In this document: positions 7,328 to 14,519 of the stretch, one piece after another
Layout: every line of letters begins with the position of its first letter
How positions within the stretch are numbered: position 1 is the first letter of the stretch
Source: an uncultured virus (IMG/VR IMGVR_UViG_3300042363_000446)
Lineage: Duplodnaviria; Heunggongvirae; Uroviricota; Caudoviricetes
Length of the DNA stretch: 55,360 nucleotides
IMG/VR virus record: IMGVR_UViG_3300042363_000446
Reading direction: 5' to 3' (one strand)
Notes under the pieces: model-generated
Database searches by the model: none
What the model was told of the DNA's origin: nothing
The model's input: only the letters and a program-made list of their open reading frames with translations
Program-made: the position numbers and the translations under genes

Positions 7328-8214
7328 ATACCTTTTGTAGTTAAACTACCGTTAGCATATTGTTCTAAACTAAATTTGTCTCTGATGTCATTTCTAGAAA
7401 CAACTGGATATGCTGTTAACTGTATTTGTATCTGTGTAGGAACATATGTTGCGTCAGTAAATTTACCCGGTCTCGGCGGAGAGAATACTGTAGGTGGTGC
7501 TTCTCCGCCGGGCAATAAAGTTAACCCTAGTCTGGCTATTCGCTGTATTATTGTGGGCTCTTTTGCTTGTGTTCCTTCTTGAGCACCGGTTGGTGGCTCG
7601 TTATTTGGAACCGGGGACGGAGACTCAAGTTGCGCCCTTATATAATCTACTTTATCAGGTAGACTATAGTTAAAACTAGTAATTACTATAGGATGATTAT
7701 TGAACTGATAAGTGCCTAACCCTGATAGAAAACACAACGGGGGAGGAGTACCGTTCACTGGCATTTGATCTCGACCATAAAACATTTTAGTAACTGATTT
7801 AAAAAAGTGTATAACTGCTAACATATAGTTGGCTTCTTCAGTATCTTGCGCTGTAAAGGTAGCAGTTATTGAAATTTGATCTACACTACTGTTTCTGTAC
7901 TGATAAATTTTATAATTAGAATGAACAGGTTCTGTAGGTTCATAGTTTGCAGCATAACTTACCTGAATTTGTGGTGTGTAAGGGAATATCACACCTTTAG
8001 TGCCGTTAAGGGGTTTAAGTATACCTGGCTTTGATGCTTTATATAAATATGTTGCATCCGGCGCTAGGCTTAGTCGCACTCTCCAGTCATTCTGCGCCTG
8101 TTCAAATTGATTGTTAGTTGCAGATTCTTGTGTGCGAGTTATATCCCCAGGCAAGCCGGCAAGCTTGCCAAGACCTTTTCTTATTAGACTTTGTGTAAAC
8201 GGACTTATTGCCAT
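7321..8214 (-). CDS. Baseplate tail-tube initiator/cap-like protein (gp48/gp54-like)
   Basis: FPYTPQIQVSY...ISITATFTAQ...PPPLCFLSGLG...VITSFNYSLP tube-fold motifs; first gene of the baseplate operon. Confidence 0.55.
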   Translation of the reverse strand: MAISPFTQSLIRKGLGKLAGLPGDITRTQESATNNQFEQAQNDWRVRLSLAPDATYLYKASKPGILKPLNGTKGVIFPYTPQIQVSYAANYEPTEPVHSNYKIYQYRNSSVDQISITATFTAQDTEEANYMLAVIHFFKSVTKMFYGRDQMPVNGTPPPLCFLSGLGTYQFNNHPIVITSFNYSLPDKVDYIRAQLESPSPVPNNEPPTGAQEGTQAKEPTIIQRIARLGLTLLPGGEAPPTVFSPPRPGKFTDATYVPTQIQIQLTAYPVVSRNDIRDKFSLEQYANGSLTTKGIW

Positions 8215-8226
8215 TGATTAATTCCT

Positions 8227-8257
8227 ATGATAAATAGTATCTCATTGTATTTATCAT
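8227..8257. promoter_or_regulatory. Face-to-face pair of late promoters (ATGATAAATA-N11-TATTTATCAT)
   Basis: Perfect 10-bp inverted repeat, each half a late promoter core, between the divergent baseplate operon and gp55. Confidence 0.65.
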
Positions 8258-8287
8258 TCAAAAAATCGCCAAATTTTCCCTTTGTAC

Positions 8288-8316
8288 TTGATATAAGTGC
8301 ATGATTTGTATATAGT
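8288..8316 (+). promoter_or_regulatory. Sigma70-like promoter upstream of gp55
   Basis: TTGATA-N17-TATAGT. Confidence 0.55.
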
Positions 8317-8344
8317 TTAACTTCTACAATTACTAAGAGGTATT

Positions 8345-9250
8345 ATGATTACAACTATAACAGCTACACCAAAGAAAGTTAATTATTTAAATAACAAAGA
8401 TATTTTAAAACAAATACACGAAAGCAAAACATCATATTGCGCATTTACAAACAAAGACTATCATAGATATGATTTGATTATTGACAAACCCACAGAAAGC
8501 ATAGAACAAAGTTTAGATCATGCTTATTTACCTGAACAAATTCAACAAGCAAAAGAAGTTAGAGCAGCAAGACTATCACATGAGCTAGGTGAAAAGATTC
8601 TTCCTGAAAGTATACAACAAACTGATCTCGTATTTAGAGTTATGACTTGGGATCATATTCCTGTTGCAGTTAAACAACCTAGAAAAACAGTAGTAAAAAA
8701 ATCAGCCAAAGACTTAATTTTGTTTGACGATCATGAAGGTTTAGACGCTTTTGCTGACTTAGAAGATCCGGTAACAAAAGTTGAAGTAGACGATATGGTA
8801 CATGTAAAGGTAAACTTTCCCCCATTTCAGCATTTTAAATTAGATGAAAACAACAGCTTTATATGCGTGGGCAAGTCGCATTGGAAAGGTGACTTACAAA
8901 CCGGAGAGTTTTCCAAAGAGCACGGAAAGATTACTGACAAGTTAGCTAGAATGTATATTATGCTTTGCGAAAAGTATGCTATGAAGTTTAACTGGCGCGG
9001 ATATACTTATAATGATGAAATGCGTGGTGCAGCCATTTTACAACTAACTTATGTTGGCTTAAGATTCAATGAAGCGAAATCAGCTAATCCATTTGCTTAT
9101 TACACTGCTGCTATTACCAATTCTTTTTGTAGAGTTTTAAATACCGAAAAACGAGTACAACACATTAGAGATGATATATTAGAAGCTAATGGGTTAGCCC
9201 CAAGTTGGACTAGACAGGGTGAAAACTCTGATAAAGATTATCAAGGGTAA
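8345..9250 (+). CDS. gp55: Late-transcription sigma factor, gp55-like, with large internal insertion
   Basis: NYLNNKDIL and KFNWRGYTYNDEM...RFNEAKSANPFAYYTAAITNSF match T4 gp55 blocks; gp55-gp47-gp46 synteny. Confidence 0.8.
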   Translation: MITTITATPKKVNYLNNKDILKQIHESKTSYCAFTNKDYHRYDLIIDKPTESIEQSLDHAYLPEQIQQAKEVRAARLSHELGEKILPESIQQTDLVFRVMTWDHIPVAVKQPRKTVVKKSAKDLILFDDHEGLDAFADLEDPVTKVEVDDMVHVKVNFPPFQHFKLDENNSFICVGKSHWKGDLQTGEFSKEHGKITDKLARMYIMLCEKYAMKFNWRGYTYNDEMRGAAILQLTYVGLRFNEAKSANPFAYYTAAITNSFCRVLNTEKRVQHIRDDILEANGLAPSWTRQGENSDKDYQG

Positions 9251-9264
9251 TATTACCTTTCTAG

Positions 9265-9293
9265 TTGATCTCTTTCTATTAACATACTATACT
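9265..9293 (+). promoter_or_regulatory. Sigma70-like promoter upstream of gp47 (probably leaderless mRNA)
   Basis: TTGATC-N17-TATACT ending 7 nt before ATG 9301; no SD sequence. Confidence 0.5.
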
Positions 9294-9300
9294 ACGGTTT

Positions 9301-10320
9301 ATGACTAATAATTTATTTAAAAAAGCAGCAGTTTTTACCGATATTCACTTTGGAAATAAGAGCAACAGCACAATTCACAATCAAGATTGTTTAGACTTTG
9401 TTGAATGGTTCATTCAAAAAGCTAAGCAAGAGGGTTGTGAAACTTGTTTTTTCTTGGGTGATTGGAATCATCATAGAGCAAGTATCAACATTCAAACGCT
9501 ACAGTTTGGCTTAAAAGCATTAGAGAAAATGAACGATGCGTTTGAAAAAGTCTACTTTATTCCAGGCAACCACGATTTATACTACAGAGATCGTAGAGAT
9601 ATTAGCTCAGTAGAATGGGCTAAACATCTACCCAATATTATAATTGTTAACGATTGGTTCAAGCATGAAGATGTTGTTATTGCTCCTTGGTTGATCGGAG
9701 ATGACTTTAAAAAGCTTTCTAAAATGAAGGGCAAGTATTTGTTTGGACATTTTGAACTACCCAACTTTTTTATGAATGCGGCCGTGCTGATGCCAGATCA
9801 CGGAGAAGTTAGTGATACTCATGTAAGTGGGTTTGAAAAAGTATTCTCAGGGCATTTTCACAAGCGACAAGCTAGAAAAAACATTTGGTATATTGGAAAT
9901 GCATTCCCTCACAACTATGCAGATGCTGGTGATGATGCTAGGGGAATGATGATTCTAGAATGGGATCAAGAACCTGAGTTTCATGCTTGGCCTAAACAAC
10001 CTACATTTAGAGTGTATAAGCTAAGTGAAATCTTAGATAACCCTGATGGTTTGCTATTATCTCGCTCACATGTTAGAGTACATCTTGATATTGATATTTC
10101 ATATGAAGAAGCTAACTTTATCAGAGAAACATTGATTCCTCAATATAATTTAAGAGAAATGACTTTGATCCCAATGAAGGGTGACAGTGTTTCACAAGAC
10201 AATGCTCAAACTGAACTAAAATTTGAGTCAGTGGATCAAATTATTTTACAAGAAATCACTAACATTGAAAGTGATTTTTATGATACAAAGACCCTATTAG
10301 AGTTATACAAAAATCTATGA
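9301..10320 (+). CDS. gp47: Recombination nuclease subunit (gp47/Mre11/SbcD)
   Basis: Metallophosphoesterase motifs DIHFG, GDWNH, GNHD, GHFE, SGHFH. Confidence 0.92.
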   Translation: MTNNLFKKAAVFTDIHFGNKSNSTIHNQDCLDFVEWFIQKAKQEGCETCFFLGDWNHHRASINIQTLQFGLKALEKMNDAFEKVYFIPGNHDLYYRDRRDISSVEWAKHLPNIIIVNDWFKHEDVVIAPWLIGDDFKKLSKMKGKYLFGHFELPNFFMNAAVLMPDHGEVSDTHVSGFEKVFSGHFHKRQARKNIWYIGNAFPHNYADAGDDARGMMILEWDQEPEFHAWPKQPTFRVYKLSEILDNPDGLLLSRSHVRVHLDIDISYEEANFIRETLIPQYNLREMTLIPMKGDSVSQDNAQTELKFESVDQIILQEITNIESDFYDTKTLLELYKNL

Positions 10321-12392
10321 TCGTACTAAAGAATTTAACAATTAGAAATTTTCTTTCTGTTGGAAATGTTACCCAAGCAGTAAACTTTGATAACAAAGAC
10401 TTAACACTTATTCTGGGCGAAAACTTAGACTTAGGGGGCGATGGTGCCAGAAATGGTGTTGGTAAAACAACAATGATTCAAGCAGTATCTTACGCAATGT
10501 TTGGTTCTCCAATTAATAACATCAGAAAAGATAATTTAATTAACCGTACAAATGGAAAGGGTATGTTAGTTACTCTTGACTTTAATGTTAATGGTACTGA
10601 GTATAAAATAGAGCGCGGTAGAAAGCCCAATCTTTTGAAATTTTACATAGGCGGAGAAGCAGTAAAAGACAGTGAAGACTCTGCACAGGGTGAAAATAAA
10701 GAAACTCAGGTACAAATAGAAAAAATTATAGGTATGAGCAATGATATGTTTAAACATATTATTGCTTTGAATACTTATACTGAACCGTTTTTGTCTATGA
10801 AAGCAGCAGATCAGCGTGACATTATTGAACAGTTAATGGGTATCACACTGCTATCCGAAAAAGCTGAAAAGCTAAAAATCTTGGCTAAAGAAACAAAAGA
10901 TCAAGTACAGTTAGAAGAATTTAAAGTAAAAGCTATTGAAGAAGCCAATAAGCGTGTACAAGAACAAATAGACAGTTTGATACGCAGACAAAAACTTTGG
11001 ACAGCTAAGCATGATGAAGATGTAACTAATTTGGCTGTTACATATGATGATCTTAGTAAAATCAATATTGAGCAAGAATTACTAACCCATAAAGAATTGG
11101 CTTTGTATTTTGAGCGTAAGAAAAAACAAGATGCTTATGAAGCATTACTTGCTAGACAAACTGCTTGGAAAGAAAAGAACGAAAGTGAAATTGCTGTTCT
11201 TTTAAAATCCTACGACCAACTAAGTCATATTGATATTAGTGCTGAACTACAAGCACACAAAGATTTAACTAGCCATCAAAAGAAAAAAGCAGAACTAGCT
11301 CTTTTAAACAAAACAATTGTTTCATTACAAACTACACTAGCCAAAGAAGAAAAGCTAGTAGACAAACTATTAAAAGAAGTTGAAACTCTTAAAGATCATA
11401 AATGCTATGCTTGTGGACAAGATTTACATGATACAAAGCATGATGAAGTTTTAGGTCAGAAAGAAGCTTTGTTAGCATCAGCACAAGGAGATGTTGCCCA
11501 AACCCAAAATGAATTAGAAAAAAATAAAAATTCTATTTTTGAATTGGGTTTGGAACCTAACACTTATTACGATACTGAAGCAGAAGCGTTTAAGCATAAC
11601 TCTGAACTAGAAAGTATCTTAAACATGATTCAAGCTAAGCAAAATGAAACTGATCCATATCAAGAACAAGTTAGTGAACATGTTGTTGAAACTTTAGGTA
11701 CTATGCCCAAAACTCATTACGATACTGAACAAGAAGCTATTGAGCATAAAAGTAAAGTTAGCAATTTGCTAGAACAATTAGAAAAGAAAGCTAACGAAAT
11801 TGACCCTTATATTGATCAAATTGCAGACATGAAAAAAGATGCACTACAAGAAATCAAATTTGATACGATCAATGAACTTAGTAAAAAAGCTGATCATTTG
11901 AAGTTCTTGGTTGAATTGTTAACCAGTAAAGACTCATTTGTTCGTAAAAAGATTATTGATCAGAACTTGTCGTATCTTAACAGCAGATTGACACATTATC
12001 TTGACAAGATTGGATTGCCTCATCAAGTTGTGTTCAAAAATGACTTGAGTGTAGAGATTACTGAACTTGGTAGAGAGTTAGATTTTCATAATCTTAGCCG
12101 CGGAGAAATGAACAGACTGATATTAGCATTGTCTTGGGCGTTCCGCGATGTATGGGAAAACTTGTACTCTCCAATCAATGTATTGTTTATTGACGAATTG
12201 TTAGACAACGGTACTGATAGTGTTGGTGTTGAAAACTCATTGTCAGTATTAAAAGATATGAACAGAACTAGAAATAAATCTATTTGGTTGATTAGTCATA
12301 AAGATGATCTAGTCAATCGTGTAACTAGCGTACTGCGAGTAGTTAAAGAAAACGGATTTACAACCTTTGCTACTAGCAGTGAAGATGTATGA
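10317..12392 (+). CDS. gp46: Recombination ATPase subunit (gp46/Rad50/SbcC)
   Basis: Walker A NGVGKTT, coiled coil with CYAC zinc hook, signature LSRGE, Walker B LFIDE, ISH. Confidence 0.92.
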   Translation: MIVLKNLTIRNFLSVGNVTQAVNFDNKDLTLILGENLDLGGDGARNGVGKTTMIQAVSYAMFGSPINNIRKDNLINRTNGKGMLVTLDFNVNGTEYKIERGRKPNLLKFYIGGEAVKDSEDSAQGENKETQVQIEKIIGMSNDMFKHIIALNTYTEPFLSMKAADQRDIIEQLMGITLLSEKAEKLKILAKETKDQVQLEEFKVKAIEEANKRVQEQIDSLIRRQKLWTAKHDEDVTNLAVTYDDLSKINIEQELLTHKELALYFERKKKQDAYEALLARQTAWKEKNESEIAVLLKSYDQLSHIDISAELQAHKDLTSHQKKKAELALLNKTIVSLQTTLAKEEKLVDKLLKEVETLKDHKCYACGQDLHDTKHDEVLGQKEALLASAQGDVAQTQNELEKNKNSIFELGLEPNTYYDTEAEAFKHNSELESILNMIQAKQNETDPYQEQVSEHVVETLGTMPKTHYDTEQEAIEHKSKVSNLLEQLEKKANEIDPYIDQIADMKKDALQEIKFDTINELSKKADHLKFLVELLTSKDSFVRKKIIDQNLSYLNSRLTHYLDKIGLPHQVVFKNDLSVEITELGRELDFHNLSRGEMNRLILALSWAFRDVWENLYSPINVLFIDELLDNGTDSVGVENSLSVLKDMNRTRNKSIWLISHKDDLVNRVTSVLRVVKENGFTTFATSSEDV

Positions 12393-12430: not shown

Positions 12431-12964
12431 ATGACATCACCACAAAAAGCAAAAGGTAATTCTTGGGAAAGAACAGTCGCTATATATCTTAGCGACTTAT
12501 ATCAATCCAGCTTTCATAGAATCCCTAATTCAGGAGCTTATGTTGGTGGAAAGAATTCTGTAAGAAAAGAATCTCTTGACACGAACCAAGTAAAGTCTTT
12601 TAAAGGTGATATAGCTGCTCCAGATTCATGGGTTAACTTCAATTGTGAATGTAAATCTTATGGAGACTTCCCGTTTCATCAAGTTCTAGCAGGTAGCTGT
12701 AAACAACTTGATGGATGGTTAGAACAGTTAATGGCAGTAGCAGATAAAGACGATCTAAACATTTTGTTTGTTAAGATCAATCGCAAAGGTAAGTTTATCG
12801 CTGTTCAAACTAAGTACACATGGGTTACTGACCAGTTTATGTACTATACATCTAAAAATCAGGGTGATTGGATTCTCGTTGACTTTGATCATTTTTTTAA
12901 TCATAATAAAGACCTTCTTAAAGTATATTCAAACTCTAATTCTCAACCCGACACCAAGTCATAA
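12431..12964 (+). CDS. Holliday junction resolvase-like PD-(D/E)XK nuclease
   Basis: KAKGNSWER...GDI...ECK pattern of Hjc-type phage resolvases. Confidence 0.7.
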   Translation: MTSPQKAKGNSWERTVAIYLSDLYQSSFHRIPNSGAYVGGKNSVRKESLDTNQVKSFKGDIAAPDSWVNFNCECKSYGDFPFHQVLAGSCKQLDGWLEQLMAVADKDDLNILFVKINRKGKFIAVQTKYTWVTDQFMYYTSKNQGDWILVDFDHFFNHNKDLLKVYSNSNSQPDTKS

Positions 12965-12974
12965 TTATTAACAA

Positions 12975-13455
12975 TTCGTTTAGTCGGGATAGCCCGACTC
13001 TCCTTGAGACTGCTAGCATAGTGCTATTGCCGTTGGATTCTGGAGTAAGCGTACAATCTAGTAGTAATTGATTGTACGGAACACCGACAGGGCTCTCGTT
13101 ATGTGTGCGAACCCTGAATGAGTCTATATTTTATTCTATCTTGCGGATATAGAACATGCGTTGCTGAAGCGATAGTGATTTGTTCACTATTAGTCTTCAA
13201 CTACAGTCCCAGCAAACCTTACAGAGCAACCGGTGGCGTTAGGTAGCTAAACGGCTAACTCTAACGGGGAACAGATGGCAAAGGCGAGAGGCCGCAAGGA
13301 ATCTTAACCAGTGGTAGTGCTGTTTAGCACTACCATGGCTTCAAGACTGCAATGATTTAAACCCCAGATATAATTTAATCAATATGATACCGAAATGAGT
13401 ATGAGCAAAGCGAATACGAATGAGTGTATCAGTTGTCCGTAAGGACAACTTTTAA
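12975..13455 (+). ncRNA. Candidate large structured non-coding element (RNA and/or ssDNA)
   Basis: ORF-free ~490 bp, ~47% GC by hand count over 12981-13350, at least 9 hairpins with G-U pairs and GNRA loops on the + strand; family not recognised. Confidence 0.65.
13431..13453 (+). terminator. Probable intrinsic terminator at 3' end of the structured element
   Basis: AGTTGTCC-GTAA-GGACAACT followed by TTT. Confidence 0.55.
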
Positions 13456-13461
13456 TATAGA

Positions 13462-13689
13462 TTAAAAGAATGGAAGTTTAGATTTCTTTGTTGTTTCTAA
13501 GTTGGATTCAATTAGTTCACTTACTAATTTTCTTTCCGGTGCAGATAAATTAAGGGCGTCTGTATATGACAGTCCGCCCCTAGAATACCATGAAAAAGAA
13601 AGTGCTTGTCTTTTTATCTCAATACATTCTTTTTCTAGCTGGTCAATCAGGCTCTTTATATCCTCAGGGGCTAAACTAAGGAGCCTCAT
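13462..13689 (-). CDS. Baseplate hub assembly protein, gp51-like
   Basis: SWYSRGGLSYTDALNLSAPER; overlaps and follows the gp26-like gene. Confidence 0.55.
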   Translation of the reverse strand: MRLLSLAPEDIKSLIDQLEKECIEIKRQALSFSWYSRGGLSYTDALNLSAPERKLVSELIESNLETTKKSKLPFF

Positions 13690-14519
13690 CCGAAAAAATC
13701 GGATACATTCAACGTAAATGGTTGTTGATATTGGTGATTACATTCACCGCATTGTAATGCCAAAGGTTTTAAGTTAGTTTTTTCTTTTAAGTTAGCGTTA
13801 TGCTCTTTGATTGCATTAAAAGTATCTCTAGAACAGTTTCTTAAAAAGTCTTCAATAAACTCTTTATTATCTACTCTATGCCCATCAGGAGTTTCAACAT
13901 ATTCTATAGTTTTAGCTATAAGTTTAATTGATAACTCTGTAATAGTTTTTAACCCTTCTTGAGATTTTTGTTCTTTTATTGAAGCATCTTTTTCTTGTTC
14001 AACGGACAATAGCAACCTTTGTAAATCAAATTGTGCTAAATTAGCTTGATTGATGTCATTATAATCCAAAGGATTAAACTTTAACTTTAGTTCAAGAACT
14101 TCTAATTTTTCTTCATAGTCAGGTGACGTTAGCCCACTTAGTACAAAATTTAGATCAATTGCATAAGTTGCTTTATTCTGGCAAGCAGGGCACTGTGAAT
14201 CTAGTTCTAAACTATTTCCAGTAGAAGCTACTTTGATTCCAATCAATATAGTGTCTAAATCAATATTGTTTATTTTCCATGGATCTTTGATATCAGGTAT
14301 ACAACTTTTTATAAGATCAACTATTACATTACCGTTAAACAATGCATCGGGTGTTTTTGTAGTAATTTCATCAATCGCTGTCATAGGATAAACAGGTATT
14401 TCTTCTGTTTCTGGATAATTTAAAACATCAGGAGTATAATATTTACCCTTGGATGGTAGCTTGATATAGATAGCTGGTCTTCTAAAGTATTGCTTTAGTG
14501 GGTTATTAGATGTACTCAT
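13686..14519 (-). CDS. gp26: Baseplate hub assembly chaperone, gp26-like
   Basis: IKLPSKG...PMTAIDE...DLDTILIGIKVASTG...CPAC and C-terminal CGECNH. Confidence 0.75.
   Translation of the reverse strand: MSTSNNPLKQYFRRPAIYIKLPSKGKYYTPDVLNYPETEEIPVYPMTAIDEITTKTPDALFNGNVIVDLIKSCIPDIKDPWKINNIDLDTILIGIKVASTGNSLELDSQCPACQNKATYAIDLNFVLSGLTSPDYEEKLEVLELKLKFNPLDYNDINQANLAQFDLQRLLLSVEQEKDASIKEQKSQEGLKTITELSIKLIAKTIEYVETPDGHRVDNKEFIEDFLRNCSRDTFNAIKEHNANLKEKTNLKPLALQCGECNHQYQQPFTLNVSDFFG

Follow-up and report, generated by a model that had tools for sequence, protein, structure and literature searches.

Replication origins of jumbo phages are, to our knowledge, essentially unmapped, and we know of no functions for the large orphan RNAs that phages carry. 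The locus studied here, in a freshwater T4-like jumbo phage, raises a question that touches both: what is the job of a hairpin with repeated tandem GA mismatches in a gene-free gap, and could it belong to a replication origin primed by RNA, as a sequence-only reading had proposed? The window, the whole stretch of 55,360 nt that was analysed, is part of a 117-kb virus record and is near-identical to the end of a 267-kb record from lake water (G001). Its plus strand carries a run of genes for a late sigma factor, SbcD and SbcC (8345–12392), the last member of which is a RusA-like Holliday junction resolvase gene (12431–12964, +), followed by 497 nt without a gene. The neighbours on the far side are convergent, namely a small ORF of 75 aa (13462–13689, −) with no match in PHROG and a baseplate hub family gene (phrog_150; 13686–14519, −), whose end overlaps the small ORF at a conserved T-run (13686–13700, −). 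By their resolvase, the closest cultured relatives (the PA5oct group, SCTP-2 and Phosso) are only about 43% identical.

Two hairpins behind a structured element

Hairpin 1 occupies positions 13385–13431 of the plus strand and consists of two symmetric GA/GA steps, one asymmetric GAA/GA step and a GC-AAA-GC cap. The pieces of the parse first proposed for it join exactly to the sequence, and all six GA dinucleotides stand in the Y-GA-R context that had been claimed for them. The same reading had overlooked a second hairpin, which abuts the first (13431–13450, +) and has a perfect 8-bp stem and a C-GTAA-G loop. With a strict threshold of at least two GA/GA steps and at least five Watson–Crick pairs, hairpin 1 was the sole match on either strand of its own 117-kb genome, and 10 Markov shuffles produced none. 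A looser scan of G001 gave it a score of 26, with a runner-up of 15.5 and scores of at most 20 in six order-3 shuffles. Contigs from two DNA runs that are not marked as possible sources of the record (X16 and X17) span the hairpin without any difference.

The claim that the sequence folds well only on the plus strand stood with RNA parameters, under which the plus strand reaches −10.7 kcal/mol (z −4.06) and the minus strand −6.9 kcal/mol (z −1.84). It did not carry over to the DNA parameters of ViennaRNA, under which neither strand stands out (z −0.97 and −0.47); this set leaves the GA steps open, so it is unable to test a strand-specific fold of DNA. The unremarkable DNA energy is what one would see if the hairpins were a chance fold or an assembly artefact, but hairpin 1 is unique in its genome, scores above all shuffles, is present in other runs and is conserved with covariation (see below), and we give this explanation practically no credence. 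Hairpin 1 is real, unique in its genome and far above chance.

Between the resolvase gene and the hairpins lies a conserved structured element of about 385 nt (12970–13354, +), a candidate primer RNA without an Rfam match that we assign to class 1. Its helices carry G-U pairs and contain fewer A-C mismatches on the plus than on the minus strand, as expected of a plus-strand RNA, and the element is probably RNA. An Rfam scan of the window gave no match at gathering score and one chance match (E 0.81), a scan of the window for tRNA and tmRNA found none, and blastn of the intergenic region against cultured phages returned only 27-nt chance matches. Sigma-70-like matches were not above chance (three found, 4.4 expected); one of them, inside the resolvase gene (12879–12907, +), is a possible promoter of the RNA. 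RNA runs yielded low-depth contigs only: a 236-nt contig from run X20 falls inside the RNA (13078–13313) and the others in coding DNA, while none is listed over the hairpins and none comes from run X23. As these contigs give neither strand nor ends, they are evidence neither for nor against.

The element is followed by an A/T-rich spacer (about 13352–13384, +). The A/T-richness noted earlier for 13352–13385 was borne out, at 79% A+T in comparison with 64% for the genome and 68% for intergenic sequence, but 4.4% of 34-nt windows are equally rich and the spacer is thus only moderately unusual. Class 1 spacers in relatives measure 23–116 nt, with a median of 50 nt and 76% A+T.

Conservation of the cassette and its upstream RNAs

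After identical sequences and loci with less than 600 nt of downstream sequence had been dropped, 171 non-redundant resolvase loci were compared; another locus comparison left out six incomplete or element-free loci. The slot behind the resolvase gene is shared by three large structured RNA classes, which were assigned by short motifs in 131 of the 171 loci (82, 42 and 7 loci for classes 1, 2 and 3, respectively). Examples of the other two are L025:3520–3880 for class 2 and L179:2510–2880 for class 3, and the profiles of classes 1 and 2 do not match each other. The strict top of hairpin 1 (GA, 2 bp, loop, 2 bp, GA) was found in 119 of the 131 loci with an RNA class, compared with 3 of the 40 without an assigned class, and most of the 12 failing loci show variants by eye. 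Hairpin 2 is present in 118 of the 119 strict-top loci and directly abuts hairpin 1 in 69. When the scan started from the cassette, an RNA class was found upstream on the same strand in all 75 loci (62 distinct) with at least 500 nt of flank. The hairpin thus always sits on the strand that an R-loop of the structured RNA would displace, in agreement with the earlier proposal.

Compensatory changes support the predicted pairing. The GA columns of the alignments are invariant, and the pairs flanking the GA/GA steps, which the earlier reading had linked to its proposal, change on both sides. Among 11 equal-length one-step cassettes, 11 of 16 pairs show two-sided changes (35 of 176 cells) and none a one-sided change; among eight two-step hairpins, two-sided changes occur in 8 of 10 pairs (21 of 80 cells), with one T-G. 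None of 500 shuffles gave covariation scores as high. Because the rows had been chosen beforehand for pairing and share ancestry, the scores show structure and are not to be read as probabilities.

G001, G005 and the complete 364-kb record G004 each contain a single cassette; G008 has none of this form. A pattern search of bacterial genomes for the cassette found none, and a search for the class 2 core found two MAG contigs, which are probably mis-binned phage DNA. In four loci (L189, L256, L172 and L207) hairpin 1 is branched or enlarged and has extra mini-loops, with the GA/GA foot kept. We also observed a late-promoter-like motif, TAAATGA(A/C)(T/C)A, on the plus strand at most 140 nt past hairpin 2 in 27 of 75 class 1 loci, where it points into the end of the convergent gene (for example in L042, L049 and L065); it is absent from the window.

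One of the RNA classes overlaps a known family. Of 26 loci scanned, eight, all of class 2 (L025:3526–3661, L139:2528–2663 and six more), have a match to the Polynucleobacter-1 motif (RF01718) that covers the first ~135 nt of the element. Judged by these matches, the orphan motif forms the 5′ portion of some longer jumbo-phage elements of class 2, and its presence may hint at betaproteobacterial hosts. RF01718, listed as a possible cis-regulator (PMC2864571), spans neither the class 2 core nor the cassette, and the class 1 RNA and hairpins of the window match no Rfam family. ARRPOF, GEBRO and PAGEV, structured motifs of plasmid replication regions (PMC5737381), form together with ROOL and GOLLD the comparison set for the phage RNA. 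Candidate RNAs upstream of RusA and resolvase genes are catalogued in the available part of PMC10690425, the supplementary models of which may include these phage RNAs.

Folding as DNA or as RNA

Tandem GA pairs are stable in RNA as well as in DNA, and the Y-GA-R context is that of sheared G-A pairs in DNA. In the cassettes, 109 of 114 GA/GA steps have this context on both arms. The 81 distinct loops of hairpin 1 comprise 33 GNA, 21 GNYA, 16 GNRA, 7 ANA and 4 other loops, so that 70 are of the GNA or GNNA type of DNA mini-hairpins, and 75 are closed by C-G. Hairpin 2 has GNA triloops in 40 of 55 distinct cases, with C-G closing 47. Outside the cassettes, GNA loops made up 5 of 258 local hairpins inside the RNAs and none of 56 terminator-like hairpins in four genomes. 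G-T pairs account for 4 of 431 pairs in hairpin 2; the share of G-U is 5.5% in terminator-like stems and 7.1% inside the RNAs by the class 1 alignment fold, or 18% by the detector used for the hairpins, a value inflated by chance hairpins. According to the available part of PMC13037366, DNA mini-hairpins form only with GNA triloops, GABA and GTTA tetraloops being accepted, and r(GCGAAAGC) melts at 39 °C, compared with 76.5 °C for DNA. The same part of this source describes mini-hairpins of the GNA type as binding SSB poorly and places them at the priming sites of G4 and RSF1010 and at N4 promoters.

A further mini-hairpin was found on the strand opposite the RNA. Just behind the RNA end, 30 of 107 distinct class 2 and class 3 spacers contain GCG-N(N)-AGC on that strand, against an expectation of 0.1; 25 of these have flanking GA/GA (18 clusters), and none was found on the RNA strand. 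An RNA transcribed from the plus strand could make no use of such a structure. In L374 and L451 the opposite-strand mini-hairpin is duplicated in tandem. Class 1, to which the window belongs, showed no excess, with 4 of 76 compared with 4.8 expected and, in a set of 75, one case before and three after.

The earlier suggestion of a single-stranded DNA fold is favoured by the loop types, the Y-GA-R context and the rarity of G-T; with the opposite-strand mini-hairpin added, we consider it probable that the cassette folds as single-stranded DNA and not as RNA. Some observations count against this: the window's own loops, AAA and GTAA (a GNRA loop), are the least typical of DNA, 12 of 29 hairpin-1 loops in class 2 are GNRA, and the z score of the hairpin is −4.06 as RNA and −0.97 as DNA, the latter from the parameter set that leaves the GA steps open. 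We also considered the minus strand as a source of UUCG loops, but only the CC-GAA-GG form gives UUCG, and this is out of register.

The hairpins could alternatively be the 3′ domain of the large RNA, whose stacked helices with sheared G-A pairs would shield the RNA end or serve as a binding site for a protein. Their constant position on the RNA strand and behind the RNA fits such a domain, as do the good fold with RNA parameters, the 16 GNRA loops of hairpin 1 and the GTAA loop of the window's hairpin 2. It is harder to reconcile with most loops being GNA triloops or GNYA, which breaks the GNRA rule, or with the near lack of G-U, unlike the RNA's own helices. The spacer between RNA and hairpins varies from 13 to 116 nt, one type of cassette stands behind three RNA classes without a mutual profile match, and the opposite-strand mini-hairpin is left unexplained. 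We regard an RNA domain as unlikely.

What is conserved in the spacer is an A-run at its end, present on the 5′ side of the foot of hairpin 1 in 109 of the 118 loci, and this A-run would also be explained by a terminator on the minus strand. The cassette lies between the resolvase and baseplate-hub units, which are convergent, and if it were a terminator there, the A-run would be the U-tract of the minus-strand transcript; 77 of 91 distinct hairpins have at least five T in the minus-strand tail, and on the plus strand a terminator scan accepts hairpin 2 of the window. However, at least five T follow hairpin 2 in only 11 (+) and 21 (−) of the 118 tails, and the hairpin before the minus-strand T-run has a median energy of −4.7 kcal/mol, compared with −10.3 kcal/mol for the terminator-like hairpins of the same genomes. 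The stable hairpin with a conserved U-tract that defines an intrinsic terminator was not found across the 118 loci. Moreover, GA/GA steps and GNA loops are meaningless on the minus strand, and the window itself has no A-run. Termination is possible as a side effect; it does not explain the rules followed by the plus strand, and as the purpose of the cassette we consider it quite improbable.

A candidate RNA-primed origin

Small plasmids offer the best-known cases of start sites opened by an RNA. The cassette itself, the covariation within it, its constant position behind an RNA of one of three classes and the DNA-type rules that its sequence follows lead us to propose an RNA-primed replication origin in which the hairpin pair is the strand-specific signal for loading or priming, a reading to which we assign an about even chance. 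From their sequence and placement, the hairpins likely mark the place where the upstream RNA opens the genome for copying. In this model, the RNA would be transcribed towards the cassette and stay on its template as an R-loop, in the manner of ColE1 RNA II. The R-loop, or the first extension of the 3′ end of the RNA, would open the A/T-rich spacer and displace the plus strand, on which the sheared tandem G-A pairs and the mini-loops closed by G-A (A-A in the window) would snap into two stacked hairpins. Such a pair would resist the single-strand binding protein and guide the helicase and primase encoded by the phage to their place on the lagging-strand template. Where the RNA is of class 2 or 3, the opposite-strand mini-hairpin would serve the other strand after the bubble has opened.

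The gene content of these phages gives the proposal its setting. A scan of 122 + 30 of the 291 ORFs of G001 found replication genes of the T4 type: polymerase B, a DnaB-like helicase, primase, SSB, a RecA-like protein, a UvsW-like helicase and a 5′–3′ exonuclease. Among five records, an RNase HI-type match was found in one and a PriA domain in none; at ColE1-type origins, RNase H cuts a primer RNA that has formed a persistent hybrid. The N-domain of gp59 was matched in T4 but, in the same search, in none of the five records and in neither PA5oct nor Phosso; the available part of PMC7824862 describes gp59 as present in only several T4-like jumbo phages.

The sequence-only reading had also pointed to skew around the locus, and here the data disagreed with it. 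In G001, G004 and G005, the GC and AT skews at four-fold sites show no switch at the locus, and raw skew tracks gene direction. The absent switch counts against a dominant two-way origin, though not against a one-way, recombination-dominated or early-only replicon. The gene strand in these records switches 5–6.5 kb from the cassette and not at it; in the window, the point from which the two main arms of genes run apart is 8214–8345, about 5 kb from the hairpins. Genes pointing away from a switch near the cassette are a weak hint of an origin, and as the three records share their gene order, the observations of the strand switch are not independent. In all three, the two long arms part at a point with the baseplate block on one side and the late sigma gene on the other. 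A 6266-codon virion protein is encoded at 193140–211937 of G001.

Hairpins folding as DNA could also serve another job, as an N4-type promoter, a substrate for recombination or for the resolvase or SbcCD, a packaging or genome-organising mark, or the stop of a regulatory R-loop. All the DNA-type evidence would fit such roles, the genes for an SbcCD-like nuclease and the resolvase are nearby, and GNA mini-hairpins are also known as N4 promoters (PMC13037366, available part). Against a promoter, no single-subunit RNA polymerase was found among the 122 scanned G001 proteins and the giant virion protein, and neither a promoter nor a resolvase site would be expected to show such strict linkage, in order and strand, to an upstream RNA. 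We think that a different role of this kind is rather unlikely.

Comparison with mapped systems bears on the origin reading. Look-alikes of the GA hairpin had been expected at plasmid initiation sites, and we found them in ColE1-type plasmids and also in phiX174. In ColE1 (NC_001371; L027), positions 1323–1351 of the RNA II strand form a hairpin that has two GA steps below a C-GTA-G cap; its top, GA-GC-GTA-GC-GA, also occurs in 7 of 119 phage loci. We take this stretch to be the primosome assembly site (n′-pas/ssiA), presumably located some 130 nt past the RNA-to-DNA switch. At least 5000 plasmid records, among them IncX1 and IncF plasmids, share the hairpin core as a conserved island, and four of five further plasmid stretches (L215–L219) score the same fold. 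In phiX174, the F–G intergenic hairpin (genome 2308–2351; L214:159–202), which we assume to be the mapped primosome assembly site, has one C-GA-A/T-GA-G step. The hairpins of the ColE1 family and of phiX174 share tandem GA/GA steps in Y-GA-R context.

As in ColE1 and pMB1, the long structured RNA of the phages has behind it, on its own strand, a hairpin with tandem GA steps in Y-GA-R context and a C-GNA-G cap. The likeness to n′-pas thus extends to both the tandem-GA hairpin and its position on the displaced strand downstream of a candidate primer RNA. A difference from ColE1 is that the phage RNAs bear no sequence relation to RNA II: the class 1 and class 2 profiles do not match L027, and there is no Rfam match. 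The phages differ also in having a second, abutting hairpin, an A-run without a GAAGCGG foot and their own T4-type replisome. GAAGCGG, which we take to be the consensus motif of PriA sites, is present in L027 and L214 and was found near none of the 119 phage cassettes, which we therefore do not file as PriA sites. If the model is right, the phage cassette would work like ColE1 RNA II and pas as an analogue and not as a member of that family. The phiX174 site differs from the phage cassette in its single step, its TTTA loop, the absence of an upstream RNA and its single-stranded phage.

The available parts of PMC3167613 and PMC3640518 describe the ColE1 primosome site and its mechanism, those of PMC4595007 and PMC4129139 the sites and mechanisms of ColE1 and phiX174, and that of PMC5778457 the phiX174 site as a PriA hairpin site; coordinates of the sites are given in none of these. 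In a search that left subscription journals and the classic pas papers largely outside, we found neither a published remark on tandem GA pairs in primosome sites nor a published description of the cassette. The rules for loops and closing pairs are shared with the DNA mini-hairpins GCGNAGC and GCGNNAGC of the G4, St-1 and alpha3 origins, RSF1010 ssiA and the N4 promoters; the phage cassette adds repeated GA/GA steps, a second hairpin, a large RNA and a double-stranded jumbo phage.

The R-loop origins of T4 consist of a promoter and an A/T-rich unwinding element. The phages studied here resemble T4 in their replication genes and in having a putative transcript followed by A/T-rich DNA. They differ from T4, where gp59 is the loader, in the missing match to the gp59 N-domain; we know of no ornate conserved RNA or GA hairpins at T4 origins.

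In some more distant phages (PA5oct, Phosso, L026, G008 and L211), the resolvase gene is preceded by a long non-coding element of another kind. At the far end of this element stand GA hairpins capped by G-TTTA-C, some of them on both strands (L108:1631–1706, −, and 1830–1865, +; L110:2120–2325; L026:2130–2330; G008, about 195010–195060; L211, about 660–690). In PA5oct the G-TTTA-C hairpin is directly adjoined by a second one whose loop is GTA, and the opposite strand carries a further GA hairpin; Phosso likewise has hairpins on both strands. An RNase HI gene adjoins the element in Phosso, where it is annotated, and in G003. The class 1 and class 2 profiles matched none of the elements of PA5oct, Phosso and G008, and a pattern search for the G-TTTA-C hairpin found no viral contigs. 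We regard elements of the PA5oct and Phosso type as likely analogues of the cassette, with an uncertain element strand. In the part of PMC7318152 available, the analogous region of PA5oct (NC_071039, ~75.7–77.1 kb) is absent from the listed four ncRNAs, promoters and 36 terminators, and expression values for it were not found.

Taken more generally, and only tentatively, a widespread group of T4-like jumbo phages without gp59 might start replication at a dedicated origin built from an exchangeable large structured primer RNA, an A/T spacer and sheared-GA hairpins on one or both strands, and tandem sheared G-A steps might be a primosome-site design shared by phiX174, ColE1 and jumbo phages. If so, the primer RNA of such an origin would be exchangeable among at least three unrelated classes, one of them containing Polynucleobacter-1, and the cassette would be among the few natural DNA structures with repeated non-Watson–Crick pairs backed by covariation. 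The short cassette and the look-alike in the cultured phage PA5oct make the idea testable with standard assays. An RNA-primed origin at this site would provide a locatable origin in a large group of phages and a job for several ornate RNAs.
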